Shown one piece after another: positions 457-64,000 of a stretch of 64,000 bases of DNA. Below the pieces are notes generated by a model. That model searched no databases and had not been told where the DNA came from. It saw nothing but the letters and a program-made list of their open reading frames with translations. The position numbers and the translations under genes are program-made. Position 1 is the stretch's first letter. Every line of letters begins with the position of its first letter. The stretch spans positions 384,001 to 448,000 of the forward strand of contig CM000429.1 in NCBI GenBank assembly GCA_000165345.1, read 5' to 3'.

Positions 457-544
457 GTAAGTAAAATCTAATATATAAATATCCTACTGTGAATTTGTAC
501 ATTTTCATTTACTTGTTCTAACTCCTTTTATTTATTTTCTTCAG

Positions 545-3500: not shown

Positions 3501-6500
3501 ATCCAATGGGAATCGAACATTGGAATAGCTTGCTTCAAAGAGGAAGAACAATTAGAATAATTGACCACGAAATTTTCAATAAATTCGAAGCTCAAGTTAA
3601 GCAGTCAATAGAATGGAATGAAATATACTTCACAGCTCTGCATTCGGATGCATTTTGCAAAGTTATAAAGTATAAAAGGAATAGTAAACCATCTAATAAG
3701 ATAATTTACGAAATTGCAGAACTTTTGGTTAGAGTAGATTATGGAATAGGCGAAAGACTCGTTACTTTTAGAGAGCTAAGACAGAGCGTAAATTCTTTTG
3801 TAGAACTACGTAACCAGGGAATTAAATATTTGAATATATGTATTAATGAAAGAAGAGATAAAGTTTTTTCTAGGTTATTAAATAAATATTTGAATCAATC
3901 CCAAGTTTCTACTCAACAAAACTCAGAAGTTATAGACCAAATAAATTCAATTAAGCAATTTACATCTGATTTAAAGAACCTCCTGGAAAGCTGTAATCAA
4001 CACACAATTTCTATGGATTTAATAAGTTATATACAAGATGAGATTCTATTGCGTGAAATCAATCAGAAAATGTTCAACGCACTAATTAATCAAGAAAATC
4101 CTTATTTCACAACAAATTTATATGGTTATTCTGCTGCTTCAAATGATTCAAAGATCCCCACATTCGATGAAGCAAATGATATTGTTAACTTTATTAGAAT
4201 TAATGATTTAAATATTATGCCAGAAAACTATTCAAACATAAATGAGACCAATGGCTCTCAAACTCAGCTTTCATTTGAAATTCATGAAAAAAGTCAGCTC
4301 ACAATCAAAGAGCTTAAAGAAATAGTTTTGAATTCTGAATCTGTTTTAATGAAGGGCCTTGATTCAACTGGAATGTTAATTGAAAAGAAATACATTGATG
4401 TTGATCTGTTCAAAAAATTTAGGAAAGCTGTATATATTTCTAGTGAATGGTTGAAAGTTTTCAAGATTAATCATTTTAACATAATTGATAACATAAAAGC
4501 TGAAAGTTTTTATAATAGAGAAGTTCCAAAAAACTTGTTATCACTTAACGTTAAATCTTCAATAGATTATTTGTTAAAAGAATATCTTAAGAGCCAAGTA
4601 AGTGAGCTCGTGATTAATTCAGTACCAGAAAAAGAATGTGCTATCAATCAAGTCAAATTTGAGTTAAATTGGAATCAAATCCTTGAAAGATTTAATGAGT
4701 TGGAGATGAATGATTTAATCCAATTTAAAGGGAAAAATAATGATATTATTAAGAGATTGTTACATACTTTTGAAGTGGCTGATGAACGCTTAGATGATTA
4801 TTCAACAAAGCTTGATGAGAATATTCTATGCAAAAATGAACAATCTTCCGAGGAAGTATTTTTTGATGACTATTCAAAATATAGTGCCCCTTTATTTTTA
4901 AACCTTTTGCATTATTTAAGGAATAATAAGAGTGCTTTATCGAATTTTGCCGATGAAAAATCTTACTATGAAAGCCTACTCAACTCTATTAAATCACATA
5001 TAAATCTTAAATATTGTATCCACTTATCCGATGAAGAAAGATTAAATATTCAACAATTCGAAGAAAGTTTAGGTGTCAGCAGTAATTATAGATTAAGCGA
5101 TACAGAATTACAGAAAAATGAAACCATACAGGATCCAAATATATCAACTCAAAATATAAAATACAAAAGAAATAAGAGATCTAAATCGCTAATTAATGGA
5201 GAAAGGGTTAATGAAGAAAACATTGATAGTATTATCAATATATTAAGGAATATTGAAATGCCAAGTATCGAATTATCTCTTTTCCTAATCAATTTTGGAA
5301 AAAAGTTTGTTAAATTTGAATTAAAAGAATTCTCAAATTTATGTAAAATGGTTGAATTTTCTTTGCTTTGGATGGCCTTAGTTATTACTAAATTCCCAAA
5401 TTTTATAAAAGCGAGCCTGGGAGATGATATCAGTGAAATAAGTGGCATTGAAGCAATAAAAAAACAAAATAGTCAATTAGTTTTTGAAGATTGGGAGAAA
5501 AATGTTTGTTTTGATTTTTTCAGTACAAACAATATTTGTCTCGGTACTATTAATACTGGCGAAATAGCAAACTCTCAATGTAAGCGTCTTCAAAATACTT
5601 TGGAACTCAAAGAATTCGTCTCTTTAATTGAGACATGCGATCAATTACCAATTCAAATACCAATTAAATCGAGGCTTGTAAATATTCTTGTGGATGCATT
5701 AAAATGGACAATCTCCGCTAGAGAAGCAATATTACTATTACCTAGAAATACAATATTATGTCCATGGGTACATATTGAAGGAATAGTGGAAGAAATTACT
5801 CTACGCTCAAAGAATAGTCAAATAATGAAAACTATTGGCCTTGATAAGAATATTTATAATATCAAAGATGAAGAAATTATGAATATCATATCAAACTTCA
5901 ACGCTAATGAATATGAAACTTGTTCTAATTTTGAAAAGAATGGTGAAGTAGACATTCAAGTTAAAAAACTTCCAAGGCCTAGAGGAAGACCTAAAAGAGA
6001 ACAGGTTTGTGTGACAAAAAACGAATCACAATTTGAAGATATATTTAATAATATATGCATGGATTACAAAGAAATAGATCGCTTGCCTAATTGCGTTTTT
6101 CCAAAGTCATTTTATTTGTGGTTGTTAAATGAAAACAACAATAAATATTTTAGTGTTCAAGATTTGATGTCTATTACATCCAAGGATGAAGATAATAAAA
6201 ATTCCAAATTAAATAATTCCCAAAACTGTAATTCAAACATTGGATGGGAGAACGGTTACTTTTATTGGAATAAAAGCGGTAGTTCAGCTTCAAAAGAATC
6301 CATTGTTGAAGATGACTGTGGAAGTGATTGTAAATTGCAATATATTGGATTGATTGATCCCCAAAATTATCCAAAGAAGGAGGTTTATAAAAGCAAATTA
6401 TTGTTAGATTTTATCCTTTGCATTGAAGTATACAATAACATTCAAAACAATCCTGCAGAGTTGTGTTCTATTTGTTCCAATTTCAGAAAACGAAAACATA

Positions 6501-44007: not shown

Positions 44008-46806
44008 ATGATTGAAGAAAGCTATTCAAACTTTAGTAAAAGAGGTGATATAGAGAATCCTATTGAAATATTAGATAATGGAACCTTCCAAGATAGGGAA
44101 AACTTGAGTGTAACATCAAATAAACATACTGGGGAAGATTCACACAAAGTCATTCCATTTGAATATGGCAACGGATATGGATATTTATATACAAGACTGA
44201 AGTGGATTTTGGACAACAATGAAACAAATGGTCAATTTAAGAATGAAATGTACTCTTTACTTGAAACTATTGGCGAATTAAGAGTTTTGGGAGTGTATAA
44301 TGAGCCATACAAAAAGTATCGGAAGGCATTTGACATTTTTTCAATGAAATTTGATTCTTACAGTGAATACAATGAGAACATTATTGGCGATTTACGTTAT
44401 CAGTGTTATCAAAGCTCTTCATCTGGTAGGAAAGAGTTAAAAATTATTGATAGAGGCATTAAGGAATGGAGTAAGCGTGATCGAGAAAATAAATTATTGC
44501 ATTCATACAGGGACGCAATGTCTGAATGGCTAAATAAAAGCGAGTTAGGGATAAATAAAATGGAACCCAAAGCTATTAATAGCGAAAATATTTTTAAAGA
44601 AATTATAAATTATTCAAAAGATGTAAACAACCCTCTGCAACAATCACAAATACTATCATTTCTATCAATATCATATATTTCAGAAAAGCTGTTTCCATTT
44701 ATGTCGGGGCAATTAGCTAATAACACTTCAAGTGGAACGTTTTCATGCGGAGTTCTTAGCGATACAATAAGATCTGAAACACAAAATCCAAATGGCTCTA
44801 TTTCTTCTATTGAATTAGTTAACGAAAATGCTGTAGAAGATGCAGCTATTTCAATCGAGGAAAAACAAAACCCTTTGAGAACTGATTTCGCTTTGGAGGT
44901 AATCCAAAAAAGTAGCGAAAATTCTCTTAATAGTTTAAGAATACATAAAAATGAATCAGTTATGAACTGGATAAAAAGCAACTCTATCAGAAGGCAAGAT
45001 GCTAACGGTCAAAAGCCTGAACTAATTTACGATAAAATCCGAAAAGAAAGAAAAAAACAACTATCATTAGACAGAGAGAAGATTTTGTCTCAGGGGCTCA
45101 CTAGAGGTTCATATGATATTAATAAAGATATTTCAAATTCTTCTTTAAATAAGGACTTTATTTTAAAAGAATATTTTACTGATTATTTCTCGATTTACAA
45201 ATTATTCATTTCTACGAGGGAGAATTTATACAGCCAACGTGAATATTATAAATCAATTCCAATTGTTGGATCTATTCGATATAAGAAACAAAAGATTGAC
45301 CTCGAAGAAGTAAGAACAAGACAATTTCAAAGCATTTACAATGATGGAATTCACTCCGAACTCGTGAGCAAAATACGAAGAGTCTTAATCTATAGGAGTG
45401 AATGGAAACGCCCTCCAATGTACTTATTGATCACTCATAAAGGAAGGCATTGCAAAGGAAATTATCCTTTGGCAAAAGAGGACAACATTAACTATGATAT
45501 TGATACAGATGAGGAATGGGAGGAGCAATTTGGTGGTGAGGACGTAGAAAATGTTGATGATATACCTGATGTTTACGAAGAAGATGATGACAACGATGCA
45601 GTAGCTTCGGGATGGTTAGTTCCAGATGGGTGTTTTCAATCTGATGAACTATTAGATGAGTTCACAATTGGAAATTCAATTAACGATCATCGCGCAAATA
45701 TGGTAAATCTACTTCCTCTTTCATCCCAATATCCATCTCCTGTCGTAGTTTCATTCCTGAATCATACAAGCGTTGATTTTGGAGTTGGTATTTCGACTCC
45801 AAACGAAGAGTATGTAAATTCTATATTAAAAGGTTATTTAATACATTTTACACAAGATATTAGTTGGATATATAGTAAAATGGATACATCTAGATTTTAC
45901 TTGAGTATTACACCAGATGAATCAAATTTCCAACCCTCAAATATATCAGAAATTTCTAATGCAAAAAAAAACGTCCTCGACTTGCAATTCAAACAAGATT
46001 TATCTTACTTTATTCATGGAAAATGGGCGTCAATAAAAAAATTAGTCGACGACTTTTTTGAAATAAATAGCTATAAAGATATTAAAAAGGCGTCAGTTGT
46101 TCACTTCATTAAAGAGAATGTAAGAAAAGCAAAGCTTACAGGAGATGTCAAGTTTAGATGGTATGTTAACGAGAATTGTGCGAATCTTGGATTAGATCCA
46201 GAAAAGTTGTCAGAATTATTGGCGCAGAGAAGGGCAGAAGAAAAAAATCTTTCTAATAAAGTCGAACTCACAAAAATTACACAAAATCGAGCTTACCTAC
46301 AGTCAGATGCGGGCTCCCCAAGTCTTAAATATCAGATACAAAATTCTGGAAATTGCCCCAACTCCAATGGAAAAGGAAAGCAGACAGAATCATGTCAATA
46401 CTTAAATGGCATTGATCCCGAATATTATATTAATCAAAAAATTGTCTCAGAGAACGATGAGAATAACAACATTAATTCGCAATGTAGCTTGAAAAGTACA
46501 GATTATGTATTGAATTATATCTCATCCTCTCAAGGAAGTGAACGATCTAGTATCAACAGTCAAGTGATTGATAAGGAAACGCACACAGGAACAGTGTACA
46601 ATAAAAAGAGGAAATTTTCGACTCCAATAAGAAATGTGCCTGATGATCATTCTAACTACCCATCATTTAACCAAAAAAGAGACGCAGATGAAACGGATGG
46701 GGTTGGGAGCATTCGAACAAATACTCCGGAAAGTAAGAAAGGCCATGCATATTTATATAACAATTCACTTATTACACACTTCTTCCCGCCCAAAGCAAAA
46801 GGCTAA
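44008..46806 (+). CDS. Chromatin assembly factor 1 large subunit (CAF-1 p150/Cac1) homologue (932 aa)
   Basis: The acidic ED-region signature NYDIDTDEEWEEQFGGEDVENVDD...DDDNDAVASGWLVPDGCFQSDE aligns with human CHAF1A DYEVDSDEEWEEEEPGE...DEDDGFFVPHGYLSEDEG. A K/E/R-rich helical segment (KIRKERKKQLSLDREKIL) lies upstream. Confidence 0.7.
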   Translation: MIEESYSNFSKRGDIENPIEILDNGTFQDRENLSVTSNKHTGEDSHKVIPFEYGNGYGYLYTRLKWILDNNETNGQFKNEMYSLLETIGELRVLGVYNEPYKKYRKAFDIFSMKFDSYSEYNENIIGDLRYQCYQSSSSGRKELKIIDRGIKEWSKRDRENKLLHSYRDAMSEWLNKSELGINKMEPKAINSENIFKEIINYSKDVNNPLQQSQILSFLSISYISEKLFPFMSGQLANNTSSGTFSCGVLSDTIRSETQNPNGSISSIELVNENAVEDAAISIEEKQNPLRTDFALEVIQKSSENSLNSLRIHKNESVMNWIKSNSIRRQDANGQKPELIYDKIRKERKKQLSLDREKILSQGLTRGSYDINKDISNSSLNKDFILKEYFTDYFSIYKLFISTRENLYSQREYYKSIPIVGSIRYKKQKIDLEEVRTRQFQSIYNDGIHSELVSKIRRVLIYRSEWKRPPMYLLITHKGRHCKGNYPLAKEDNINYDIDTDEEWEEQFGGEDVENVDDIPDVYEEDDDNDAVASGWLVPDGCFQSDELLDEFTIGNSINDHRANMVNLLPLSSQYPSPVVVSFLNHTSVDFGVGISTPNEEYVNSILKGYLIHFTQDISWIYSKMDTSRFYLSITPDESNFQPSNISEISNAKKNVLDLQFKQDLSYFIHGKWASIKKLVDDFFEINSYKDIKKASVVHFIKENVRKAKLTGDVKFRWYVNENCANLGLDPEKLSELLAQRRAEEKNLSNKVELTKITQNRAYLQSDAGSPSLKYQIQNSGNCPNSNGKGKQTESCQYLNGIDPEYYINQKIVSENDENNNINSQCSLKSTDYVLNYISSSQGSERSSINSQVIDKETHTGTVYNKKRKFSTPIRNVPDDHSNYPSFNQKRDADETDGVGSIRTNTPESKKGHAYLYNNSLITHFFPPKAKG

Positions 46807-51506: not shown

Positions 51507-51968
51507 ATGTGCGAAACAACGTTCATTGGGAGAGCTAGCGATGGCCTAATTCTTACTGAGACTTGGGATGATTTAAGCTCCAACAGATCTCTGCAGAGTT
51601 ATAAGCACCAAGCTAAACAAATATTAAAAAGCATCGGGAATGATCAAGGAGTAGAAAAATGTTCTATTGATAGTGGAAATTATGTCTTCCACTACATTGT
51701 AAATGATGGTATTATTTATATGACTTTATCGGGAAAGTCATACCCGAAGAAGTTGGCTTTTTCTTTTCTAGATGAAATAAAAAGGTTATTTATTGAAGAA
51801 CTAGGGAGAGAATTTGCAAATAGAGATGAATTCAAGAGCCTGATTGATGCAATAGATAAGCCGTATTATTTCATAAAGTTTGACCGAATAATTCAACGAT
51901 GCAAATCCGAATATAAGGACCCAAACTCGAACAAGTCGCTACAAAAACTAAATGACTCGCTAATTGAG
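51507..51968 (+). CDS. SEC22: R-SNARE SEC22, exon 1 (longin domain)
   Basis: MCETTFIGRASDGLILTETWDD...YKHQAKQILKSIG...NYVFHYIVNDGIIYMTLSGKSYPKKLAFSFLDEI is collinear with the Sec22 longin domain. The exon ends GAG|GTATGT at 51969. Confidence 0.85.
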
Positions 51969-52021
51969 GTATGTTTACTACTTGTTTTTAACCATAATGC
52001 TCAAAAAAATTAACAATTCAG

Positions 52022-52240
52022 GTAACTAATATAATGAGAAGAAATGTGGATGATATTTTACTGAGAGGTGAAAATCTTAATGATGTTGAAAGAAAAGCCA
52101 ATGATTTAAAATTTGCATCCCTGGAATTTTCTAGAGCTGCAAAAAAGCTTTCATTGCATGCATTAATTCAAAAATATGCACCAATATTGGCCTTATCGGC
52201 TATAGTTTTGATCATCATTATATGGAAGCTTATTTTATAA
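52022..52240 (+). CDS. SEC22: R-SNARE SEC22, exon 2 (SNARE motif plus C-terminal TM)
   Basis: After a 53-nt phase-0 intron (51969..52021, GTATGT...TTCAG), the frame continues VTNIMRRNVDDILLRGENLNDVERKANDLKFASLEFSRAAKKL. This has the R-SNARE zero-layer Arg and a TM anchor, matching Sec22b NIEEVLQRGEAL.... Confidence 0.85.
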   Translation, partial: VTNIMRRNVDDILLRGENLNDVERKANDLKFASLEFSRAAKKLSLHALIQKYAPILALSAIVLIIIIWKLIL

Positions 52241-53314: not shown

Positions 53315-54310
53315 ATGAATTTAATAAATAAACTTTACCGAATATATAAGAGAGAAAAAAAGGAGGACTTAAGAATAAGTGACAAAGAAGAGCCATTAAT
53401 AATATCAAAAACAAGAATGGCACTATTAGAACTAGAAATTAAAACTTTAGCTTACATTCTTTCTAGAGAATTAAAAACGAGTTCTCAAATTTCTAATCTA
53501 TCCGAAATCAAATGGGCAGAAATTACCACTGATGACTTGGATAGACTTGAATCCATCTTGTTTGAAAATGTCTACGAAATAGAAATTAACCCGATAGTTA
53601 AGTCATTAATCTCTATTTTGAGAGGACTATTAGATACACGTAACAAGTTTTTTAATGGCAAAGCGATGCCGTTCTATGTAAAATTAAAGAATGAGAATGT
53701 TCAAAGTACATTTATTTTAGAAGAAAGCGTTAATTTTCCATTTAGAAACGATAGATTAATCAAACAATGTGAAAATATAAACTCTAGTAATGCTACTCCA
53801 AAATCATATTTCTCTTCAAGAACCCCAAGAAACCTTCCAGACTTTAATCAAAAGGTAGAATTGCCAATTAAAAGTAGGTCGAACCATATAAATTTAATTT
53901 CTTCAACTCCAAGAAGTACTTCGTGTCAAACACCTAGGACAAAGAATCACATGAAACATACGAATTTAGATTATTCTACACCAAAATCCGAAATAAATAA
54001 AAAAAATTATTATATTTTTAGTGATTCAAATACCCCAAGAAGAAGCTCAAAAACTGGAATTTGTGGCAATTCGAAAATATCTAACAACCAGCAAGGAAGT
54101 ATAATGGCAGCAAAAGCGCTGCTTGGGTTAAGTGTTAATATACCTGCAACTGAGCAAGATATTAGAAAGGCATATTTGAAGGCAGCAATGAAGTGGCATC
54201 CTGATAAGATGAACTCAAGTACAAATGGGAAATCGCATATTTGTTTTACTGCAATTCAAAACGCAATGGAAATATTATTGCAAAATATTTCCAAAAATGG
54301 AGAGGTTTAA
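53315..54310 (+). CDS. J-domain (DnaJ-like) protein with a C-terminal J domain
   Basis: The C-terminus AAKALLGLSVNIPATEQDIRKAYLKAAMKWHPDKMNSST...AIQNAMEIL contains the HPD tripeptide and helix II/III pattern. The N-terminal 250 aa are Ser/Thr/basic-rich and unassigned. Confidence 0.72.
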   Translation: MNLINKLYRIYKREKKEDLRISDKEEPLIISKTRMALLELEIKTLAYILSRELKTSSQISNLSEIKWAEITTDDLDRLESILFENVYEIEINPIVKSLISILRGLLDTRNKFFNGKAMPFYVKLKNENVQSTFILEESVNFPFRNDRLIKQCENINSSNATPKSYFSSRTPRNLPDFNQKVELPIKSRSNHINLISSTPRSTSCQTPRTKNHMKHTNLDYSTPKSEINKKNYYIFSDSNTPRRSSKTGICGNSKISNNQQGSIMAAKALLGLSVNIPATEQDIRKAYLKAAMKWHPDKMNSSTNGKSHICFTAIQNAMEILLQNISKNGEV

Positions 54311-54387
54311 AATTTCAGTAATTTGGTACAAACCATTTTTGAAAAAAGTTTATTGGCCATCTGAAAAATAATTAATGCAAATCAAGT

Positions 54388-54414
54388 GGCGGGAATTTTC
54401 AAATTTGTCCCCGC
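54388..54414. promoter_or_regulatory. Inverted pair of E2F-like sites (GGCGGGAA-N11-GTCCCCGC) about 70 to 95 bp upstream of the giant SPRY/UBA gene ATG
   Basis: TGGCGGGAATTTTCAAATTTGTCCCCGC. The GGCGGGAA half-site matches the apicomplexan E2F-type motif (TTTGGCGGGAAA). The second half is its imperfect reverse complement. Confidence 0.3.
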
Positions 54415-54482
54415 ATTACATAATTGCATGTAATAACTGTCCATATGGAAGACTTAGATTAAAAAGATTTATTTAATTTCAG

Positions 54483-57400
54483 ATGGGAAATAATATTGAT
54501 TTAATTACTTATGAACAATCAAATTATGAAGTTAATGAGTTAGATAAGCTGTATTTGCAACTAGGAAATTATATTGGAAGAAAGGATGAAAATATTTATA
54601 TAAGAGAATTATTAAAGTACTTCTTACAAAATTATTATGACTTAAATCCTAATATAATTGAAGATTGGTGGAAGAGGCGCGAACAGCTATTCCTGAGTGT
54701 TGATGAACTAATTTGGAGTAACCCAAAAATGTTTGATGATTCACTTTGTGAACTAAATTTTGCAACTGAAGAAATGAAAACTTTGACAATGACGTCAAAT
54801 ACGAAAAATAAAATTTCCAAATACTTAGAAAAATTAAATTGTATTATTAATGATGAATTTTCAATTGTAGGCAGTTTTAATTGGGAAGAATATATTGGTA
54901 TTAGATTACAATGTTATGTTAACTTGATGATTACATTGAGAAGGCTTCAACTGAAATTATTGGATTATGATAAAAATAATTATTTTGGACTAAATAAACT
55001 ACTATTTAAGACCAATCAATCCAGTGAAGATATTTTTTTTCTTATAAATAAGGTTTTTAATGAAAATTTTGTAAATTTGGAAACTTATACAAAAATTAAT
55101 CAAGTATTTTTGAAACAAAAATTAACAAATAACTTTAAACGGGAAAAATTAAATTTTATACCTGAAGATGAAATTTTGAACCATTTTATGAATTTTACAA
55201 TTCCTAAATCATTAGATGAAATATATAAAAAAAATACTTCAAGTTCCGAAATTGTACTTCTCGTTAGATGTGTTCTTGGATATATTTGGAGCTATTATAA
55301 AGTCATTTTTTTATCAAATGAGTCAGTTCAGAACCAAATTTTTCTTAATGTTGACAATTTATTTCCAAAGGAAATAATTACAGGTACTACAGATAAAAAC
55401 GCTATGTTATGTTTAAGTGAAGTAATAAAAACGCTGTTAATAAATATAATATTCAACTCAATGATTAGTGAATCCAACGAAAACTTGTGTTTACTAGAAG
55501 ATTTAATTAAACTAGTCCTACAGCTTGGAAACAATATTTTATTATCAGTTTGTGAAAATAAAAGCTCAATGAACAAATGCTTTGTTTTTGGAAGTAATAA
55601 AGTAACCAATTCTGATCTCGAAAACAAAAGCTTATTAATGAAAATGCTTGAGAACATGTTTTCTGAAGATGGATTTTTTGTTAGTATAGTTAAAATTTGT
55701 TTGATCGCTATTTCAATATTAACCACAGGAGTTAATCATTTTCTAGCAAAAAATGGGCAGAAAGAGTCAAATGCTAATCAAAACTTAAGTGAAAATTACA
55801 AAAACAATGTAAAAAATTCGCAAAAGTGTAGCTATTTCTCAAATGATATATGTATTATTACAATAATTATGAGATTGGTCAGTGAATGCAAATATTTAAT
55901 GCAACGATTGTGGAATTTATATATGTTTCTATCAAATGAAGTGAATTGTTGCAATTCACCTGATTTAATTAAGGAAGAAATATATTGTTACGGGCCCATG
56001 CAATTTCATTCTTCTCCAAGAAATACCTTTATTGTTGAATTCCATGAAAAACATTCAATCGGCACTATTAATGATTCGCAAAATAAATTAAATAAGAAAT
56101 TTGAATTGGAAGTTCTGGAAAAACATAAATATTATTGGAAGCTTATACGGGTTCAAAATGCTTCTCATATAATTATATTATTTGATAGCAACTGCTCTAC
56201 AGAAAAGAATACGGATATTTTAGAAATTTTTTGGTCACGGGAAAATTATTCAAGTGATAGAATCAATAAAAATTTTAATGATTTAAGATCTCAATATAAT
56301 GAATCTTTATTTGGAAAGCTTTCTGGACCTAAACACTTGTGGCCAAAAAAGCCTACTATTTATGAAGGAAATACGCTATTAGTTGTTTTTCGCACGTCAA
56401 TTGAATCTTTAGATCAAATTAGTGATGATAAGTGGGGATTCAGAATTTATTTCCAATGCCATTATTGGGATCAAGTGATTGAAAATAAAATAAGCCATAA
56501 AATATCTGATAATAAAACAGAATTCAAGCATAGAGAAATATTGCTATATAATCTAAAAGAAGTATTTATTTTTTCTGCTGTTGCTGTTTCATCAAGCTTA
56601 AGTTTTATGTTACGTGGTCCAAACATTAAAAGAATCGAAAGAAACTTCAACGAAATTTTGGATTCTCTACTTTTTGCTGGTGGGTTAGATATAAATTATG
56701 AAAAAGAGTTTCCACATTTTTCCAACTTGAAAAAAAGTGATTTAGTACCTTTTAATACGGGAAATAAAAATTTGGTTACTTTTGCTGACTTCAATTCTCA
56801 TTCAATGGCACTGATCGATTCTAAAAATAGTATGCATGGTTCTTTGCTGAAAAATGGAATAACTCTAGACAAAAAAGTTAATAATGATCTATTTTACAGA
56901 TTTTTACCTAATATTGATGAAATTAAAGACCAAATTATTAATAATTTGCACTGGGGATTCATAGTTAACTTTGTTTTAAGTCTTTCATCTATTATCCACT
57001 ACAATGCAAAAAAAAATCATTTTAATTTATCAATTGAATTAATGAATGACAAAACATTTATGAAAATTGTAAAAAATGATTCAATAACTGCAAGATTTGG
57101 CAGCGAAAAACTTTCAATGGTGGTTAGATCTTATATATCCTGTTATTTGCATCATCTGGGACTTTATTACAATATTTTTCAGCTATGTGAGAGCCTATTT
57201 AATTTTGGTCTTGGTCTAGAGAGAATAATTCAATTGGCTTGGGAATTTTATTCAAATAATAACTTAGAACACATTTATAACGATTTTTTATTTGAATTTA
57301 TAATAAAATTCATACTAAAACAAGAATCTTGCCAACCTCTTTTAAATGTTTGGACACTGGGAAGAAAATTTAGATCTTGGATAATTATGGAAAAACATAA

Positions 57401-60400
57401 AATTGAGATTAATCAGCCAGAAGAAAAAATAATATACGAATCTAGAAACAGTATTGAAACAGATTTTGACGGTTTACTTAAATCTATTATTTGTAATACA
57501 TCTTTAATTCTAAATTTGGTACCTTTTTCTGGAAGTAAGCATGCTTCAATTTACTCTAAAAATGATTTAAATAGGAGCGAAAACTTTATGGATAATCTTT
57601 ACGAAGATGCATCTAATAATTATGATATTGGTGGATCCAAATATGTATTTTATCCAAATAGAAATATATGTTTGGTTTTAGAATCGATAATTGGTTTTAA
57701 TAAGTATGAGTTATTATTGAATAAATGCTATACAGAAAAATCAAAATCGTTAGTGAATTTTGAAAGTAATAAAGATTCAGTTATTGATACCAAATCAAGT
57801 TTCTTAGATTATAATGAATTGGAAAAATTAAATAACAGTCAAGTAATCAGAGAAATCTGTGATGGAATTGAAAATTTAATTAAATCAGCAAACTACTTTG
57901 GAAAAATGAAATATAATGAATCTGAAGAAAGCTTTTTTGGAATGGATACCGTCCTTTGCATTAGGAGATTTCGTGCAATTTCACGCTTTGAAGCATTTAG
58001 AATACTCTCTACTTTGTTTAACGATGAGAATATTAATGAATTTCTTCTCACCTCATTAATTAAAAGCATAAGATCCATGGGTGAGGAGACACTATGTTTT
58101 TCACCAATAAATAATTACAACGAAACTGGAATATTGGAGTCTCATACGCATAATTATCTTTATTTCTCAAGTGAATATTATAAAAAAGATGAAAATCATC
58201 GTACTTTGGAAGTTCATTACTCAGATAACTTGGTTGGATGCGGCAAAAAAGTACAGAAACAGGTTAAGGATGCGTATTTTAAATTGTTACATTCATTAAT
58301 AAATGGTAAAGCAGTAGCTTCAAAAGGAGCTGAGATTTTAAAAATGAGTTTGTTCGCTTATTTTGCATTGAAAAAGGCCGAGAGTTATGATTTTTTAAAA
58401 ACTGGCTTTCCTGATAGAATTCTATACTTAATGACTGGTTGTAACAAGAGCTGTGAATTAGGAAATGAATGCATACCATCAGTTTCACTTGGCCCCTATC
58501 CAGTATTCCTGGTCTATTCAATTATATGTTTAAAATGTTCCCTGCAAGAAAACTCAGCAATTAAGCTATCTTTAATATTTTCTTCATTTGTAGGGCTTTC
58601 TCACTCCATTTCAATATCTGGTGAATTTAAAGGGCAATTGACGTCAAGAGAACTTTGGAGAATTAGCGAGATTTACTTCATGGGAAAAATATTAATTCTC
58701 ACATCAAAAATGACCAATTTTTTGAAAAAAATTGAAATTTCAAAAACAGAACAAAAAATATATTTGGAATATTTTAAATATATTTTTAATAGAAGACATA
58801 ATATTAACTCTTCAATTAAATCTCCCGAATTGATTGATGATTTGTTTGTAAAATTTTTTTATATTAAACCAAGTATTCTTTCTAATATTATTTGCAGAGC
58901 TTTAGATTCAAGTAACCAAATACTACACTTTTACTGTATCAAATTTTTATGGAAATTTCTTCCATTAACTTCGACAAAGGATTTCTTAGAACAATACTCT
59001 CGGAGGTTAATTCCAAATAATTACTTAATAAAGTCTAAAACTCTTGAAAAATTAAACTATATCGATTGCTTTGAAGGCTATTTAGAAAAAATAGGCCAAT
59101 CATTGGTTTTATTTAACAGTTTTGAAGAAGAATCCAAGATTCATCCTCCAGCAGTATTGGTTAATTCTTTAGAAACTGGACTCTTATATTCGTTCAATGA
59201 TCAATTGGGATCTTTATTAGATAATAATAACAGATTTATAAATAATAATGATGACTTTTATAAAAATATAATATTTTTGTTAAGGTTAATTGCATTGTAT
59301 TCAGAAAAGAATGAACAGAAATATAATGAAGTCAGCTTTAAAAAAATAGATCTAGAGCTAATACATATGGGATTTGTCCAATTATTATCCGAACAGATAT
59401 ATAAAATTCCAACTTTGCTTGATTCACTATTAAATCTCGACGAACATTTAAAACTCGAAGAAGTTTATAGATGTATTGGAATGCTTGCTGTAATAATAGA
59501 TGATTATGATTTTGAAACTCATGTTGGAAAACTGATCCATTTTCAAGAAAATCAATTAATTGAAAGTAAGAATGAAATCAGTAAAATGGGGATATTGATT
59601 TCTAATAATCCACTTAAAAAAGAATACTCCATTTTAATTAATGATTTCAAGTCTATTGAAGTAAAGAAATTCTCTTATAACTCTATAAATATATTGAATA
59701 AAACTAATATATCTTTCCCTATGAAATTTATTATTTCTAAATTAAATTTTGATATAATAAAAATAATAACTAGTATATTGAAAATTTCATTTCAATATTT
59801 ATCCAGTTTATCTACAAATATTGATAATTTGGAAAAGTATTTTTCGATAAAAATTATGGAATATGGTGCAACAATTTCAAATTTGGAGAAAAAAAAGCTA
59901 GTTGCTTTACAAATTATTTCGATGAGTTTGAGTTTTATTAATATGTTGATTGACAATGGGTACATTTCTACATTAAACCTCAGCAATGATCGGAATGTAA
60001 ATCAATTAATTGAACTAATAAATGCAATAACTAAGATTGGAATTGTAAATTTGCCGTCTATAAATGAAAAAGATGGAATATCAAGCAATATTTCAATAAT
60101 TTTAAGTAGAAGATTTATTCAACGAACTCTTCAAAAGAATCAATTTTCTAGTTCAGGTTACTACCCAATATTTAAAAAGTCTACTCAAGCGGATTTACTC
60201 AAAAATTCGCCTTATACAAATATTATGCTAACACTTCCAACAAAATGGGAAATTAAGAACCAATGTTTTTATTTTAAAAACAAAAATACAATAATTTTTA
60301 ATATCAATCATCACTTGTTTCAAGATAAAGGAAATTCAACAATGTTTACTGCAAATTGTTATATTCCAACGTTACTTTCCTTTTACTATTTTGAAATTAA

Positions 60401-63400
60401 TTTCTCATTTAGTGATGAAATGCCAAGGCACAACGAACTGAAGACAAATTTTTGTTTTTTGAGTGAATTGGATCTTGCATTCTGTGTTTGTATAGGGTTA
60501 TATAGAGATGGCTGCCAAAAAGGAATTTCGGGTTCATTCGGCAGTTATGCATATAAAAACACAGGAAAACTTGTGCATGGTTGCGATGAGAAAGAATTTA
60601 GTGAACAAAAAGTCGAAAATTTCTGTATTGGAGATACTGTTGGCTGTGGGATTGATTTCACAAATAAAGTTGTATTTTTTACAAAGAATGGTAGGATAAT
60701 TCGTTATCAAAGTAGTCAGTATACTTTTATGCAAGAATCTCTGTGCAAAAAAAAGAGTGATTACCCGAAATTTAACAATGTAATGGGTCATTTCAAGCCT
60801 GCTATTTGGATTGAAAGGTCTAAATATGATTTTGATACAAACAAATATTTGATTGTTAATGCAAATTTTGGTCAAGAATTGTTTAAATATAAATATATTA
60901 ACAAACTCAATTCCAATAACATACTTTCTTTAGAAAATGAAGAATTATCAATTTTCAGAAATAATAGTGAACAATTAACTTTTAATAACTTTCTATGTAA
61001 TAACTATAGTGAATTGAGCAAAGCGGAATTAAATAGAAGAACTTTGGCTTTTGAGTTACATGAAATAATTAATAACGATAATTTTCCATTATCTGTATGT
61101 ATTCATGCATTAGAAAACTGCAAAGATAATTTAGAATTAGCAGCTAATTGGCTATTAGAGAAAAATTTTCAAAATTCAAGTTCAACATCAATACCAAGTG
61201 AATTTCATTTTTCTTCAGATTCAACAAATAGTGGGATAAAAACATGTTCTGATGGAACAAAATGTAATAAAGTAATTTATTCTGAAAAAGAGTATTTAAT
61301 CGACAAATTAATTAGTTCAAAAAACAAAAGCACTGAATATCATTCTAGCAAATATTTTGAGTTAATTAATACTTTTATATTTAATAAGTATAATCAAGAA
61401 TTAAACTTTATCAAAGATAATTACTTTGAAATATCAAAATACTTTCTCATTTTTGGCTCATTTGGAGAAAATCCCCTTCATAGAATTGAGAACTACGTTT
61501 TAACCAATTATTCTCAAAACGTTAATATTCAAAATTATTTATCAGGCGATATTTGGTTTAATTCACAATTTGATTTTCAAGGATATGACAGAAAAAATCT
61601 GCCGAGTGAATTTGTAGAGCAACAAATATCAAATTTAACATTACAACTATTACATAAAAGAAATTCATTTACAGGAGCATCTTTTTCCCAGAAAACAAAA
61701 AAAAACTCTTTCTTACCTGGAACAATAGTTGAAATTGCACAAAATTTTAAATACTGGATATGTGGTGTTGAAGAAAACGATTGTTTTGCTTCAGAAATTA
61801 TCTCAATGAAAAGTATGGGCACTATTATTGATTTAAACAACTCACCCAAATGTAGAATTATTTATTTCTTAAGAAAGCTTTCAAAATTTACAGGGGTTGT
61901 TTGGTCGTGTAGTCAAATTACAAACTCAACATTAGTACAATTTTTTGATTATTACTCGCTTGTTTATTATTTAGTAAATTTACCATCTAATTTTTTAATT
62001 GAAACATCGACTAATATTGGACTTAGCAATGAAAGGGTTACATACAATAAAGGAACAAAGCTTAAGGCATTCCAGGATTACATCGAAAACATTTTTTCAT
62101 CTAACATTCATAACGAAAATGGAAGGACATTTTTTTATGGTAGATTACCACAAGTATTTCACTTATACTTTAAGTTTGAGCTGATTAAATGTATACAATC
62201 AACTAGAGAAGCTATATCAAAGAATTTAAATAAAGTTCATAAGTACTTGTTTGGTCAAAGCAATCATAAGCGTTTAAATTCTCTTGAAAATATTCTCCAA
62301 ATATTTAAATTAGTCTTTGGAAGTAAATGCCCTAAAATTTCTGATTATTTTGTACCCATGTATACGAAGGAAAGATTATTTTCTATATATTATACAAATT
62401 TATTAAATCAAGAAAATATGATTGGCTATACTCGGTTTCTAGAGGAATTTCCAAAGAAAGAGACAATCAAATTTACTGATATTATACTTAGGGAATATAT
62501 TTCAACAATTAAAGCTGGAATTTATTCTGAAATTCCAATTATAAAGATTGAAACTACTCATCCATGTGAATGTTTGATTGACAAAAAATACGATATTTCA
62601 TTTAAGGACTGTGACTATTTTTTTGCGATATTTGATCCGCTTTGCGAAATTAGCTCTGACAATTTGTCGTTTTTTAAAATTACTTTCAATGATTGCTTAG
62701 ACGGGAAAAAAATCACATTATTAAAAGCGACAGGAAGAGGCTTAAGTGGATGTAAACTAGTCATACCAACAAATTTATTTACTATTTACTTGGTAACATC
62801 TTCTCAAAATAACAATAAATATGGTATTAAAGCTTGTTTTATTCCAATGAGATATTCAATAAGCGATTACAAATTAATGGAAAACAAAAATATTCATTTT
62901 TCCTATATATTATTGGATTTAATTCTTAAAAACGTTGGAAATAATATTGATATAACTCATATAAAAAAAATTGTTGAAATATTACTTTTTGTATTGTTTG
63001 AAATACACATTCCCAAACAAATTTACTCATGCAAGCAAATATCCAACAAGAATATCTCATCATTTAGTTCAAAAGAAGAAAAAGTCATTCCGATACAAAA
63101 CTCATTCATTCATATAGTTCAACAATTGATTAATATTTTTATTAAATACCCAGAAGTTATATGTAATATTTCCCAAAAGAGCATTGTTATTTTAGATTAC
63201 TTAAACACATTCTTTAATATTGTTTATCTAATTCAAATGGACCAATTACAAATTGTGACAAACCATGGGAGAAATGTTAATATTAAATATTGCATTATGT
63301 TACAACTGCATTATTTGTTATTTTTTTATAAAAATAATAAAATGGATTTTTTAATAAATAATAAATATTCCCGAGAGTCTAATTTTGGTAAGCTATCAAA

Positions 63401-64000
63401 TTTTACTTTGTCAAAGTTATCTTTAGAGTTACAAATACAACATAATCTTATAGCGGAGTTAAATCTAGCAGTGCATGACTCAAAAATTAAATATTATCAT
63501 AAAAACAAGAATGTTCTATATAATATTCCGGATACAGAAATATATTCTTTAAAAAAATATAATCAAAAAGAAACGGTTTCAAATTTTCTTTTAAATGGAG
63601 ATATTAAAACACACAACTTGATCACTATAGGAAAAAAATCTATTTTTAACTTCTGTAAATGGTATAATATAATTTCAACATCAAATATCTCTATTCAAGC
63701 TTTTATTTCTTCTATAAATTATATATATGCGGAAAAATTTAGAACCGAAAATGAAAATTTCCCAATAAAAAATTTTTATTCCAATAAAGGAAATGACAGT
63801 CATCTATTTGACTTAGAGGAATCTAAAAGTTACTCATATTATTATGAACCCAATACGCCTCTAGTACTTATTGAGAAACTTGGTGAAGTTCAAATATCAA
63901 TTTTAAGCGCAATGATAATCATTCCATTTGAAACAATGAGCTCTAACAATTCAAGTTTATCGATTGACATTTCACAATTTATTAGAGAGTGTTTGGAATT
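54483..64000 (+). CDS. Giant protein, N-terminal at least 3172 aa, running off the window end, with a SPRY domain and a UBA/CUE-like ubiquitin-binding helix bundle. Candidate giant ubiquitin-system protein.
   Basis: I read the frame from ATG 54483 codon by codon to position 64000 and found no stop. It is absent from the ORF track because it is unterminated in the window. No competing ORF exists on either strand over 9.5 kb. The SPRY core is FYYFEINFSF...GLYRDGCQKGISGSFGSYAYKNTGKLVHG...FCIGDTVGCGIDFTNKVVFFTKNGRII. The UBA/CUE-like segment is LAFELHEIINNDNFPLSVCIHALENCKDNLELAANWLLEKNF. Confidence 0.8.
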   Translation, partial: MGNNIDLITYEQSNYEVNELDKLYLQLGNYIGRKDENIYIRELLKYFLQNYYDLNPNIIEDWWKRREQLFLSVDELIWSNPKMFDDSLCELNFATEEMKTLTMTSNTKNKISKYLEKLNCIINDEFSIVGSFNWEEYIGIRLQCYVNLMITLRRLQLKLLDYDKNNYFGLNKLLFKTNQSSEDIFFLINKVFNENFVNLETYTKINQVFLKQKLTNNFKREKLNFIPEDEILNHFMNFTIPKSLDEIYKKNTSSSEIVLLVRCVLGYIWSYYKVIFLSNESVQNQIFLNVDNLFPKEIITGTTDKNAMLCLSEVIKTLLINIIFNSMISESNENLCLLEDLIKLVLQLGNNILLSVCENKSSMNKCFVFGSNKVTNSDLENKSLLMKMLENMFSEDGFFVSIVKICLIAISILTTGVNHFLAKNGQKESNANQNLSENYKNNVKNSQKCSYFSNDICIITIIMRLVSECKYLMQRLWNLYMFLSNEVNCCNSPDLIKEEIYCYGPMQFHSSPRNTFIVEFHEKHSIGTINDSQNKLNKKFELEVLEKHKYYWKLIRVQNASHIIILFDSNCSTEKNTDILEIFWSRENYSSDRINKNFNDLRSQYNESLFGKLSGPKHLWPKKPTIYEGNTLLVVFRTSIESLDQISDDKWGFRIYFQCHYWDQVIENKISHKISDNKTEFKHREILLYNLKEVFIFSAVAVSSSLSFMLRGPNIKRIERNFNEILDSLLFAGGLDINYEKEFPHFSNLKKSDLVPFNTGNKNLVTFADFNSHSMALIDSKNSMHGSLLKNGITLDKKVNNDLFYRFLPNIDEIKDQIINNLHWGFIVNFVLSLSSIIHYNAKKNHFNLSIELMNDKTFMKIVKNDSITARFGSEKLSMVVRSYISCYLHHLGLYYNIFQLCESLFNFGLGLERIIQLAWEFYSNNNLEHIYNDFLFEFIIKFILKQESCQPLLNVWTLGRKFRSWIIMEKHKIEINQPEEKIIYESRNSIETDFDGLLKSIICNTSLILNLVPFSGSKHASIYSKNDLNRSENFMDNLYEDASNNYDIGGSKYVFYPNRNICLVLESIIGFNKYELLLNKCYTEKSKSLVNFESNKDSVIDTKSSFLDYNELEKLNNSQVIREICDGIENLIKSANYFGKMKYNESEESFFGMDTVLCIRRFRAISRFEAFRILSTLFNDENINEFLLTSLIKSIRSMGEETLCFSPINNYNETGILESHTHNYLYFSSEYYKKDENHRTLEVHYSDNLVGCGKKVQKQVKDAYFKLLHSLINGKAVASKGAEILKMSLFAYFALKKAESYDFLKTGFPDRILYLMTGCNKSCELGNECIPSVSLGPYPVFLVYSIICLKCSLQENSAIKLSLIFSSFVGLSHSISISGEFKGQLTSRELWRISEIYFMGKILILTSKMTNFLKKIEISKTEQKIYLEYFKYIFNRRHNINSSIKSPELIDDLFVKFFYIKPSILSNIICRALDSSNQILHFYCIKFLWKFLPLTSTKDFLEQYSRRLIPNNYLIKSKTLEKLNYIDCFEGYLEKIGQSLVLFNSFEEESKIHPPAVLVNSLETGLLYSFNDQLGSLLDNNNRFINNNDDFYKNIIFLLRLIALYSEKNEQKYNEVSFKKIDLELIHMGFVQLLSEQIYKIPTLLDSLLNLDEHLKLEEVYRCIGMLAVIIDDYDFETHVGKLIHFQENQLIESKNEISKMGILISNNPLKKEYSILINDFKSIEVKKFSYNSINILNKTNISFPMKFIISKLNFDIIKIITSILKISFQYLSSLSTNIDNLEKYFSIKIMEYGATISNLEKKKLVALQIISMSLSFINMLIDNGYISTLNLSNDRNVNQLIELINAITKIGIVNLPSINEKDGISSNISIILSRRFIQRTLQKNQFSSSGYYPIFKKSTQADLLKNSPYTNIMLTLPTKWEIKNQCFYFKNKNTIIFNINHHLFQDKGNSTMFTANCYIPTLLSFYYFEINFSFSDEMPRHNELKTNFCFLSELDLAFCVCIGLYRDGCQKGISGSFGSYAYKNTGKLVHGCDEKEFSEQKVENFCIGDTVGCGIDFTNKVVFFTKNGRIIRYQSSQYTFMQESLCKKKSDYPKFNNVMGHFKPAIWIERSKYDFDTNKYLIVNANFGQELFKYKYINKLNSNNILSLENEELSIFRNNSEQLTFNNFLCNNYSELSKAELNRRTLAFELHEIINNDNFPLSVCIHALENCKDNLELAANWLLEKNFQNSSSTSIPSEFHFSSDSTNSGIKTCSDGTKCNKVIYSEKEYLIDKLISSKNKSTEYHSSKYFELINTFIFNKYNQELNFIKDNYFEISKYFLIFGSFGENPLHRIENYVLTNYSQNVNIQNYLSGDIWFNSQFDFQGYDRKNLPSEFVEQQISNLTLQLLHKRNSFTGASFSQKTKKNSFLPGTIVEIAQNFKYWICGVEENDCFASEIISMKSMGTIIDLNNSPKCRIIYFLRKLSKFTGVVWSCSQITNSTLVQFFDYYSLVYYLVNLPSNFLIETSTNIGLSNERVTYNKGTKLKAFQDYIENIFSSNIHNENGRTFFYGRLPQVFHLYFKFELIKCIQSTREAISKNLNKVHKYLFGQSNHKRLNSLENILQIFKLVFGSKCPKISDYFVPMYTKERLFSIYYTNLLNQENMIGYTRFLEEFPKKETIKFTDIILREYISTIKAGIYSEIPIIKIETTHPCECLIDKKYDISFKDCDYFFAIFDPLCEISSDNLSFFKITFNDCLDGKKITLLKATGRGLSGCKLVIPTNLFTIYLVTSSQNNNKYGIKACFIPMRYSISDYKLMENKNIHFSYILLDLILKNVGNNIDITHIKKIVEILLFVLFEIHIPKQIYSCKQISNKNISSFSSKEEKVIPIQNSFIHIVQQLINIFIKYPEVICNISQKSIVILDYLNTFFNIVYLIQMDQLQIVTNHGRNVNIKYCIMLQLHYLLFFYKNNKMDFLINNKYSRESNFGKLSNFTLSKLSLELQIQHNLIAELNLAVHDSKIKYYHKNKNVLYNIPDTEIYSLKKYNQKETVSNFLLNGDIKTHNLITIGKKSIFNFCKWYNIISTSNISIQAFISSINYIYAEKFRTENENFPIKNFYSNKGNDSHLFDLEESKSYSYYYEPNTPLVLIEKLGEVQISILSAMIIIPFETMSSNNSSLSIDISQFIRECLE

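Follow-up and report, generated by a model that had tools for sequence, protein, structure and literature searches.

The last 9.5 kb of a 64,000-nucleotide stretch of the Cryptosporidium parvum genome (GenBank assembly GCA_000165345.1, contig CM000429.1, positions 384,001 to 448,000 of the forward strand), referred to here as the window and numbered from its first letter, seemed to be empty in a six-frame list of open reading frames (ORFs). An earlier note on this DNA had claimed that this part is read on the plus strand as one continuous frame from an ATG at position 54483 to the window end, and that it encodes a giant protein combining a SPRY domain with a ubiquitin-binding domain, the architecture of giant E3 ligases. 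The analysis presented here indicates, with high confidence, that the frame is the first part of a single-exon gene of C. parvum chromosome 1 encoding a HECT-type E3 ubiquitin ligase of 4,612 residues, which probably falls in class I of the HECT family, has the proposed domain order CUB-SPRY-UBA-CUB-LamG-HECT and belongs to an old lineage of giant protist proteins.

Re-translation of positions 54483 to 64000 gave 3,172 codons with zero stops, so that the continuity claimed for the frame was confirmed. The G+C content of this region is 27%, a base composition at which one codon in about 11 should be a stop, and the chance of a frame of 3,172 open codons is about 1e-130. Given the stop codon found in frame at 54474 (Table 1), ATG 54483 is the first possible start, and, apart from an aberrant C. 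hominis model, every orthologue in the alignment starts at this methionine. The frame is preceded by a DnaJ gene (53315-54310), from which it is separated by an intergenic spacer of 172 nucleotides (nt). The final 15,518 nt of the window recur without a difference in CP029780.1, a record of C. parvum chromosome 1, and on it the giant frame runs on, with no intron needed, to a TAG at the window-equivalent positions 68319-68321, giving 4,612 codons; the stop that was to be sought past 64000 by extending the contig was thereby found. The giant ORF was indeed missing from the six-frame list, as had been observed, because the list omits ORFs that run off the ends of the source. Therefore, the emptiness of the last 9.5 kb is an artefact of the ORF track and not biology, and since edge-truncated ORFs are omitted silently, the same effect is expected at every window boundary.

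Table 1. Features of the giant gene and its 5′ flank in the window (residue numbers refer to the encoded protein; dN/dS, ratio of nonsynonymous to synonymous substitution rates)
Feature	Window position	Residues	Strand	Basis
GGCGGGAA, E2F-like motif, candidate promoter element	54388..54395		+	sequence; 95 nt upstream of the ATG, in the 172-nt spacer
In-frame stop codon just 5′ of the giant ORF	54474..54476		+	sequence; residue 1 is the alignment start in every orthologue but an aberrant C. hominis model
First 3,172 codons of the 4,612-codon single-exon gene	54483..64000		+	stop-free frame, identity to EAK88406.1, contig read-through, dN/dS
CUB-like beta-sandwich 1 (core ...NASHIIILFDSNCSTEKNTDILEIF...WPKKPTIYEGNTLLVVF...DDKWGFRIYF)	56031..56456	~517-658	+	hhalign
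SPRY domain, RanBP9/RanBP10/Gid1 type	60234..60890	~1918-2136	+	Pfam, PDB profile, AlphaFold2 (AF2), Foldseek
UBA-like three-helix domain, LNRRTLAFELHEIINNDNFPLSVCIHALENCKDNLELAANWLLEKNF	61029..61169	~2183-2229	+	Pfam, PDB profile, AF2
CUB-like beta-sandwich 2 (PIIKIETTHPCE...FAIFDPLCE...NNKYGIKACFIP)	62535..62930	~2685-2816	+	hhalign

The window product is 100% identical over 3,172 amino acids (aa) to the N-terminus of the C. parvum Iowa II protein EAK88406.1 (P0008, 4,612 aa), named in UniRef 'Large protein with a SPRY domain and HECT domain', and the same gene is also recorded as QOY43436.1 (CPATCC_000220). A protein search returned seven clusters of ~4,550-4,650 aa, all of them from Cryptosporidium and all with HECT. 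In C. parvum, the gene lies between the DnaJ gene upstream and CAF1C-WD40, Mog1 and a RING gene downstream. Ponts et al. described three HECT genes in this species, cgd8_1200, cgd1_1920 and cgd7_4990, as well as the RING gene cgd1_1950 (Ponts et al. 2008; PMC2408969). Since the RING gene sits three genes downstream of the giant gene on contig L001 and the locus tags are numbered in steps of 10, the giant gene is most likely cgd1_1920. This survey was the only publication found to name the gene when the literature was searched by gene and protein identifiers. The gene is thus already known, by its public SPRY and HECT annotation and by its entry in the 2008 survey, and is functionally uncharacterised; the earlier description of the protein as effectively uncharacterised applies to its function, with a single paper naming the gene, and not to its annotation as a SPRY and HECT protein, which is long-standing. 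It is plausible that the protein is among the largest of the genome.

The conservation of the frame was also addressed. Identity among seven species ranged from 0.58 to 0.84 per 100-aa bin and was even from end to end, the frame was free of stops in the DNA of C. parvum, C. hominis and C. meleagridis, and the length of the orthologues (4,553-4,945 aa) and the order of their blocks were kept across the genus. The overall dN/dS was 0.24 and 0.29 in the comparisons with the orthologous DNA of C. hominis and C. meleagridis, with values of 0.13-0.56 across all 400-codon blocks. By these comparisons, the frame is a genuine single coding gene, on which purifying selection acts moderately. An expansion by low-complexity 'junk' was rejected on account of the lack of homopolymer runs of five residues or more, the even conservation and a dN/dS below 1 throughout. 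Internal duplication was likewise rejected as the source of the giant size, as self-BLAST detected no repeats and the two CUB-like copies described below are matched by hhalign with a probability of only 11%. A membrane protein, such as Plasmodium PfUT, was also considered and rejected, since this Ile/Leu/Phe-rich protein presented a single hydrophobic 19-mer with a Kyte-Doolittle value of at least 2.0 (aa 399-417). Finally, N-myristoylation of the N-terminus, MGNNID, was considered and seems unlikely, as by our own reading the Asp at position 6 misfits the PROSITE consensus.

Two orthologous gene models deviate from this picture. The C. hominis model P0009 (OLQ16004.1 / PPA63419.1), of 4,874 aa and named 'E3 ubiquitin-protein ligase HERC2', begins 330 aa upstream of the methionine common to the other orthologues, in a segment corresponding to window positions ~53315-54482. 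Both the extension and the HERC2 name look like annotation artefacts, because C. parvum has at that place the stop at 54474 and a separate gene encoding a DnaJ protein of 331 aa. In C. meleagridis (L004, 501-14342; JIBK01000002.1), the locus holds an uninterrupted frame of 4,613 codons, and the annotated product of 4,591 aa is not the translation of this locus; the gene model probably removes a spurious intron of ~66 nt.

Among the domains encoded within the window, the SPRY domain was confirmed by sequence, profile and fold. The Pfam match (PF00622) covers aa 2001-2082, which correspond to 60483-60728, with 37.5 bits against a cutoff of 26.3, and reached 41.2 bits when the segment was scanned alone; it lies ~5.8-6.0 kb into the ORF, in agreement with the SPRY core announced at about 5.8 kb. 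All eight orthologues scored above the Pfam cutoff, and a profile built from them matched the SPRY domains of RanBP10 and RanBP9 in the PDB with E-values of 1.5e-5 and 2.7e-5. The AF2 model consisted of a beta-sandwich with a mean predicted local distance difference test (pLDDT) score of 54 and a core of 65-80, and a Foldseek search of the PDB with this model retrieved the IUS-SPRY of RanBP9/10 (E ~1e-10; template modelling (TM) score 0.71, target), in addition to Gid1, TRIM9/67, Ash2L, DDX1 and HERC1 (4qt6, E 1e-6). Therefore, the closest SPRY domains by both profile and fold are those of RanBP9, RanBP10 and Gid1, scaffolds of the CTLH/GID E3. However, the likeness is confined to the SPRY domain, as no match to LisH, CTLH or CRA was found in the Cryptosporidium protein. 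The domain is presumed to act as a substrate- or partner-binding module.

The UBA-like segment gave a weaker and consistent set of signals. The Pfam UBA family (PF00627) matched aa 2200-2224 with 20.4 bits in the whole protein and with 23.1 bits in an isolated segment of 371 aa, the cutoff being 22.4. UBA was matched in five of the eight orthologues and UBA_7 in three, while CUE (PF02845) had no match at E<=0.1 in any of the eight orthologue segments. The eight-orthologue profile matched the second UBA domain (UBA2) of HHR23A in the PDB at E 3e-3, and in the AF2 model three helices occupied the positions expected for a UBA domain (pLDDT 52-76). The segment includes the conserved motif LELAANWLLE, and the homologous segment of a distant relative, P0056, is RRTMAEELVQLMGGSFPVEICEIALERTGDSLEASANWLIEHGY. 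In the latter, the canonical MG-x-F loop is kept ('MGGSFP'), whereas Cryptosporidium has 'NDNFP', apparently a degraded form of the same loop. Altogether, a UBA domain is probably present despite its marginal score, and it may be presumed to bind ubiquitin. In this way, the UBA/CUE-like segment reported about 200 aa past the SPRY domain, ending in A..WLLE, held as to its position, its motif and, probably, its UBA character, but not as to CUE.

The catalytic domain is encoded past the window end, where the ORF continues uninterrupted, at ~aa 4170-4612 of the C. parvum protein. In the C. hominis orthologue, Pfam HECT (PF00632) matched aa 4229-4602 of 4,615 with 220.3 bits (cutoff 23.9), in the C. 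canis orthologue it scored 213 bits, and 75 HECT matches were obtained in the PDB. A HECT or RING domain had been predicted past 64000, with a catalytic cysteine to be looked for in a C-terminal HECT lobe, and it is the HECT alternative that was found, at the very C-terminus. The motif LPTSHTCFFQLELP (LPTSHTCFF) aligned with LPTSHTCFNVLLLP of E6AP, which carries the LPTSHTCF motif, and its cysteine, Cys4573, has the same place in all 13 Cryptosporidium sequences without exception. It lies 39 residues before the end of the protein, within the distance of about 30-40 residues usual for a HECT C-lobe. Cys4573 is, by this alignment, the predicted catalytic cysteine of the HECT C-lobe. With a C-terminal HECT on the same ORF, the sequence bears out the proposed architecture of a giant E3 ligase combining SPRY and ubiquitin-binding modules. 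An insertion of ~87 aa found in this domain (~19400-19700 of contig L001, aa ~4480-4565) is rich in Asn, Glu and Ser and poorly conserved between species; solved HECT domains seldom show an insertion so close to the active site.

Two further modules were recognized through an alignment of 11 giant protist HECT proteins, which revealed a repeated motif, ESxHPY...PGA..L.I.FD..C.TE...D.L.F...SDG....WG[YF]KF. In hhalign comparisons, aa 500-690 of the Cryptosporidium protein matched the first ESxHPY...WGYKF block with a probability of 98.5% (E 1.5e-15, core aa 553-658), and aa 2670-2840 matched the second block with a probability of 97.0% (E 1e-10, 127 aligned columns). The N-terminal stretch of the first copy, down to aa 517, where VEFHEKH would correspond to ESxHPY, was placed by eye only. 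Pfam CUB matched five of the 11 giant HECT proteins (best E 4.8e-7) and gave no direct match in Cryptosporidium, whether to the window product or to the full-length orthologues. The motif blocks would thus be CUB-like, with the Pfam CUB matches assumed to overlap them. Conservation of the first block extends to C. andersoni, C. muris and C. serpentis (E 1e-35), with a match in P0056 as well, while the second had collinear hidden Markov model (HMM) matches in P0031, P0056, P0175 and the gastric Cryptosporidium clade. Since the two copies barely recognise each other, they appear to be old. The same signature occurs two to three times in giant class I HECT proteins of oomycetes, a heterolobosean, a dictyostelid and other protists, for instance at aa 1225-1345 and 3052-3205 of P0076, and it may deserve a family model of its own, as Pfam CUB finds only five of the 11.

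Beyond the window, at aa ~3400-3660, a putative Laminin_G_3/ConA-like (LamG-like) domain (PF13385) gave sub-threshold matches in all seven orthologues, with a best E-value of 1.3e-5. Laminin_G_3 scored above its cutoff at the equivalent position in P0031 (37.9 bits) and P0056 (59.2 bits), and also in the closest Toxoplasma HECT protein (29.2 bits). The proposed order of the complete protein is an N-terminal part, the first CUB-like domain, a long spacer, SPRY, UBA, the second CUB-like domain, the LamG-like domain and HECT. Nothing else emerged from the general scans of the window product, since a phmmer search of the PDB returned only noise (E>0.2) and NCBIfam gave nothing meaningful.

To find the relatives of this protein, 1.84 billion representatives were searched exhaustively by HMMER with a C-terminal profile of 1,149 positions, and 11,418 HECT proteins were recovered. 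The top match was the intestinal Cryptosporidium representative P0005, followed by the protein of C. andersoni, C. muris and C. serpentis, of 4,941-4,945 aa, which scored 936 bits and was collinear over the whole profile, and then by a Toxoplasma HECT protein of 1,978 aa (356 bits). Many HECT-only matches came next, and strikingly many of them were 3,400-6,900 aa long; the nearest giants by HECT score include those of oomycetes (Pythium, Aphanomyces, Albugo) and of the heterolobosean Pharyngomonas. When a full-length Cryptosporidium HMM was run locally against these matches, the SPRY-UBA block was found to be collinear in P0031, from the rhizarian Amorphochlora amoebiformis, and in P0056, P0040 and P0085, while a second block (HMM positions 2670-2840) was found in P0031, P0056 and P0124; P0056 and P0040 are protist proteins from a metagenome or read archive. 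By Pfam, the order in P0031 is zf-RanBP, SPRY, Laminin_G_3 and HECT, and in P0056 zf-RanBP (weak), SPRY, UBA_7 (weak), Laminin_G_3 and HECT. Block HMMs retrieved CUB1, SPRY/UBA, CUB2, LamG and HECT in C. andersoni, C. muris and C. serpentis, CUB1, SPRY/UBA, CUB2 and HECT in P0056, and SPRY/UBA, CUB2 and HECT in P0031 and P0175. Among the 11 nearest giant HECT proteins examined, SPRY was carried by 10 and Laminin_G_3 by four.

Grau-Bove et al. (2013) divided HECT proteins into six classes and reported SPRY from class I only, a class made up of HERC1, HERC2, HECTD3, KIAA0614 (HECTD4), HECTEx1, HECTAm1 and HECTHe1 (PMC3673628). The HECT profile of the Cryptosporidium protein, compared with the PDB, matched HECTD3 with 142 bits, followed by Pub2 (107), E6AP (104), HUWE1 (102), UBE3C (72) and UBR5 (68), the scores of 107 or less coming from HECTs of classes III, V and VI, and HECTD3 was the only class I member among the matches with solved structures. 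Because HECTD3 ranks at the top, SPRY is present and 10 of the 11 nearest giants also have it, the protein was filed as a class I HECT. The human HECTD3 structure (PDB 9r85) was also the best solved match with the single sequence (117 bits), and its C-terminal tail, '...AIDTD', resembles the '...AIDID' of Cryptosporidium. However, HECTD3 has only 861 aa and an APC10/DOC domain, and is devoid of SPRY, UBA and CUB, whereas the Cryptosporidium protein presented no APC10 match.

Within class I, two groups come close to the Cryptosporidium protein in domain content. According to the same authors, KIAA0614 occurs across eukaryotes, Alveolata and Rhizaria included; part of its members have SPRY, and certain protist ones have zf-RanBP (PMC3673628). 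When compared by published description and not by sequence, the Cryptosporidium protein resembles KIAA0614/HECTD4 in its giant size and in the SPRY domain that part of the family carries. The zf-RanBP of the protist members had no match in Cryptosporidium, but is present together with SPRY and HECT in the collinear relatives P0031 and P0056. In InterPro-based tables, human HECTD4 appears as 'HECT only' (PMC6457168). HECTHe1 and HECTEx1 carry Laminin_G3 and SPRY (PMC3673628), that is, the same content of SPRY, Laminin_G_3 and HECT as the Cryptosporidium protein. However, these groups were defined as specific to Heterokonta and Excavata, respectively, and Laminin_G_3 is sub-threshold in Cryptosporidium. 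Moreover, the order in the Pythium protein P0076 differs, being CUB, LamG3, SH3, CUB, MIB_HERC2 and HECT. A more tentative reading, to which we attach somewhat less than an even chance, is that the protein represents in Cryptosporidium an ancient and hardly studied lineage, pan-eukaryotic in distribution, whose giant class I HECT ligases keep the order CUB-SPRY-UBA-CUB-LamG-HECT unchanged; this lineage may be the KIAA0614/HECTD4 family itself. Human HECTD4 has ~4,000-4,400 aa, which is compatible with a size of 4,612 aa.

Other giant ligases were weighed against this placement. The comparison drawn in the earlier note, with HERC1-like HECT ligases or RNF123-like proteins, would make the protein a large HERC or an RNF123/KPC1-type ligase that acts through RCC1-like GEF/propeller modules or a RING. 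HERC1 is also a giant class I HECT with SPRY and sometimes a UBA (PMC3673628), its SPRY is among the fold matches, and one C. hominis record names the orthologue HERC2. However, HERC1 is described as animal-specific (PMC3673628) and contains two RCC1-like domains and WD40 repeats, whereas scans of both the window product and the complete protein at E<=1 gave no match to RCC1/RLD, WD40, MIB_HERC2, Cyt-b5, ZZ or APC10, the SPRY domain is nearer to RanBP9/10 than to HERC1, and RING had no match in the full-length orthologues, whose catalytic domain is a HECT. Neither the HERC1-like comparison in its strict sense nor the RNF123-like one was therefore sustained, and the absence of RLD, WD40 and RING largely refutes this explanation, which we consider highly unlikely. 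It is even harder to regard the protein as a counterpart of HUWE1, Tom1 or UPL1, giant UBA-bearing quality-control ligases built on an armadillo-like solenoid, and this was judged very improbable indeed: the giant size, the UBA in mid-protein and the C-terminal HECT would fit, and the HECT domains of HUWE1 and TOM1 scored ~85-103 bits, but HECTD3 is ahead of HUWE1 by 40 bits with the profile, and neither the window product nor the full-length orthologues matched DUF908, DUF913, WWE or DUF4414 at E<=1. In addition, HUWE1 belongs to class VI, while SPRY was reported only in class I (PMC3673628), and Ponts et al. found no TOM1 homologue in C. parvum (PMC2408969).

The same survey placed cgd1_1920, together with cgd8_1200, in the row of PF11_0201, HUL5 and 'similar to UPL6/UPL7' (Table 2 of PMC2408969), from which the protein would be a chain-elongating ligase of the HUL5/UBE3B/UBE3C (UPL6/7-like) type. 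That table is a coarse BLAST/HMM grouping, however, and UBE3C is among the weakest HECT matches in the PDB (72 bits against 142 for HECTD3), no IQ motif was matched, and the content of SPRY, CUB and LamG and the size of 4.6 kaa (thousand residues) are unlike those of UBE3B, UBE3C and HUL5, of ~1,000 aa. The HUL5 grouping is not supported by these sequence comparisons, which leave it a minimal chance, and they favour moving the protein from that row to class I. It was also considered that the long frame might represent several transcription units, or a catalytically dead scaffold with a HECT-like fold. The unusual insertions in the HECT domain would be compatible with a loss of catalysis, and the overall dN/dS reflects only moderate constraint, with one block reaching 0.56. 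Nevertheless, not a single stop interrupts the 4,612 codons in the three species compared at the DNA level, length and block order are kept genus-wide with even conservation, the catalytic Cys and its flanking motif are invariant, and independent annotations describe a single gene, so that this possibility is very remote.

For the favoured reading of the protein as a giant class I HECT ligase, a number of points weigh on the other side. The placement in class I is based on score ranking and domain content, and not on phylogeny, and the locus tag was derived from gene order, and not from annotation. The UBA domain is borderline, falling under the Pfam cutoff in the whole-protein scan. None of the seven Cryptosporidium orthologues reached the Laminin_G_3 cutoff of 27.6 bits (C. 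hominis scored 21), the AF2 model of the LamG-like region was unusable (pLDDT 27.5), and its profile found nothing in the PDB. Compared with solved HECT domains, the HECT domain has two insertions, one in the N-lobe and the other, of ~87 aa, just before the catalytic Cys loop. Finally, ~3,000 of the 4,612 residues are without an assigned fold.

The spacer upstream of the giant ORF contains one copy of the E2F-like motif GGCGGGAA. E2F-like boxes of this sequence are typical of Cryptosporidium promoters. The motif has two copies in the window against 0.22 expected, a count reached in three of 100 shuffles, and its sequence and position make the copy in the spacer a candidate promoter element of the giant gene. 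An imperfect inverted partner, GTCCCCGC, is found at 54407-54414, 12 nt after it, and the second exact copy lies at 46783-46790 on the minus strand, near the 3′ end of the CAF1A gene.

With ~30% G+C and closely spaced genes that for the most part lack introns, the remainder of the window has the character of the compact Cryptosporidium genome, and includes genes for PLU-1/PHD, SpoU methylase, M16 peptidase, GATA, CAF1A and DnaJ proteins. One of the few intron-bearing genes is a longin/synaptobrevin SNARE gene (51507-52240, plus strand), of which the 168-aa Longin ORF at 51507-52013 represents the first exon only; the NCBI model assigns 734 nt to 226 aa, which implies an intron of ~53 nt, whereas another annotation splits the gene into a Longin protein of 168 aa and a Synaptobrevin protein of 68 aa. 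A second giant ORF, at 641-9271 on the plus strand, encodes 2,876 aa, in which a PLU-1-like region (49 bits) is accompanied by a PHD finger. Its product gave no JmjC match at E<=0.001, and by its domain content it is possibly a divergent chromatin protein of the KDM5/JARID type.

A mechanism for the giant ligase can be proposed by analogy with the biochemistry of the HECT family. The E2~ubiquitin would dock on the HECT N-lobe, and ubiquitin would be transferred to Cys4573 of the C-lobe as a thioester and from there to a lysine of the substrate. The substrate or partner proteins might be held by the four beta-sandwich modules, that is, the two CUB-like domains, SPRY and the LamG-like domain, distributed along a very long scaffold. 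The UBA domain beside SPRY could bind ubiquitin or chains on the substrate or on the growing chain, favouring processivity, or could instead autoregulate the enzyme.

The discovery value of the gene itself is small, as it was already in GenBank with the same SPRY and HECT description. Compared with the public annotation, which covers SPRY and HECT only, the present analysis adds the UBA, the two CUB-like and the LamG-like domains, as well as the explanation of the ORF track, the collinear relatives outside Apicomplexa and the reassignment to class I. Human HECTD4 is disease-associated in genome-wide association studies and mechanistically obscure. If the protein is indeed of the HECTD4 type, the study of such ligases could gain a simple model in this gene, which has no introns and belongs to a parasite amenable to CRISPR. 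For Cryptosporidium itself, an enzyme of 4.6 kaa, kept throughout the genus and subject to purifying selection, may reasonably be put forward as a candidate for an essential and parasite-divergent function, and the existence of only three HECT ligases in C. parvum according to Ponts et al. (PMC2408969), in a parasite with a small genome, suggests that it fulfils a core, possibly essential function.

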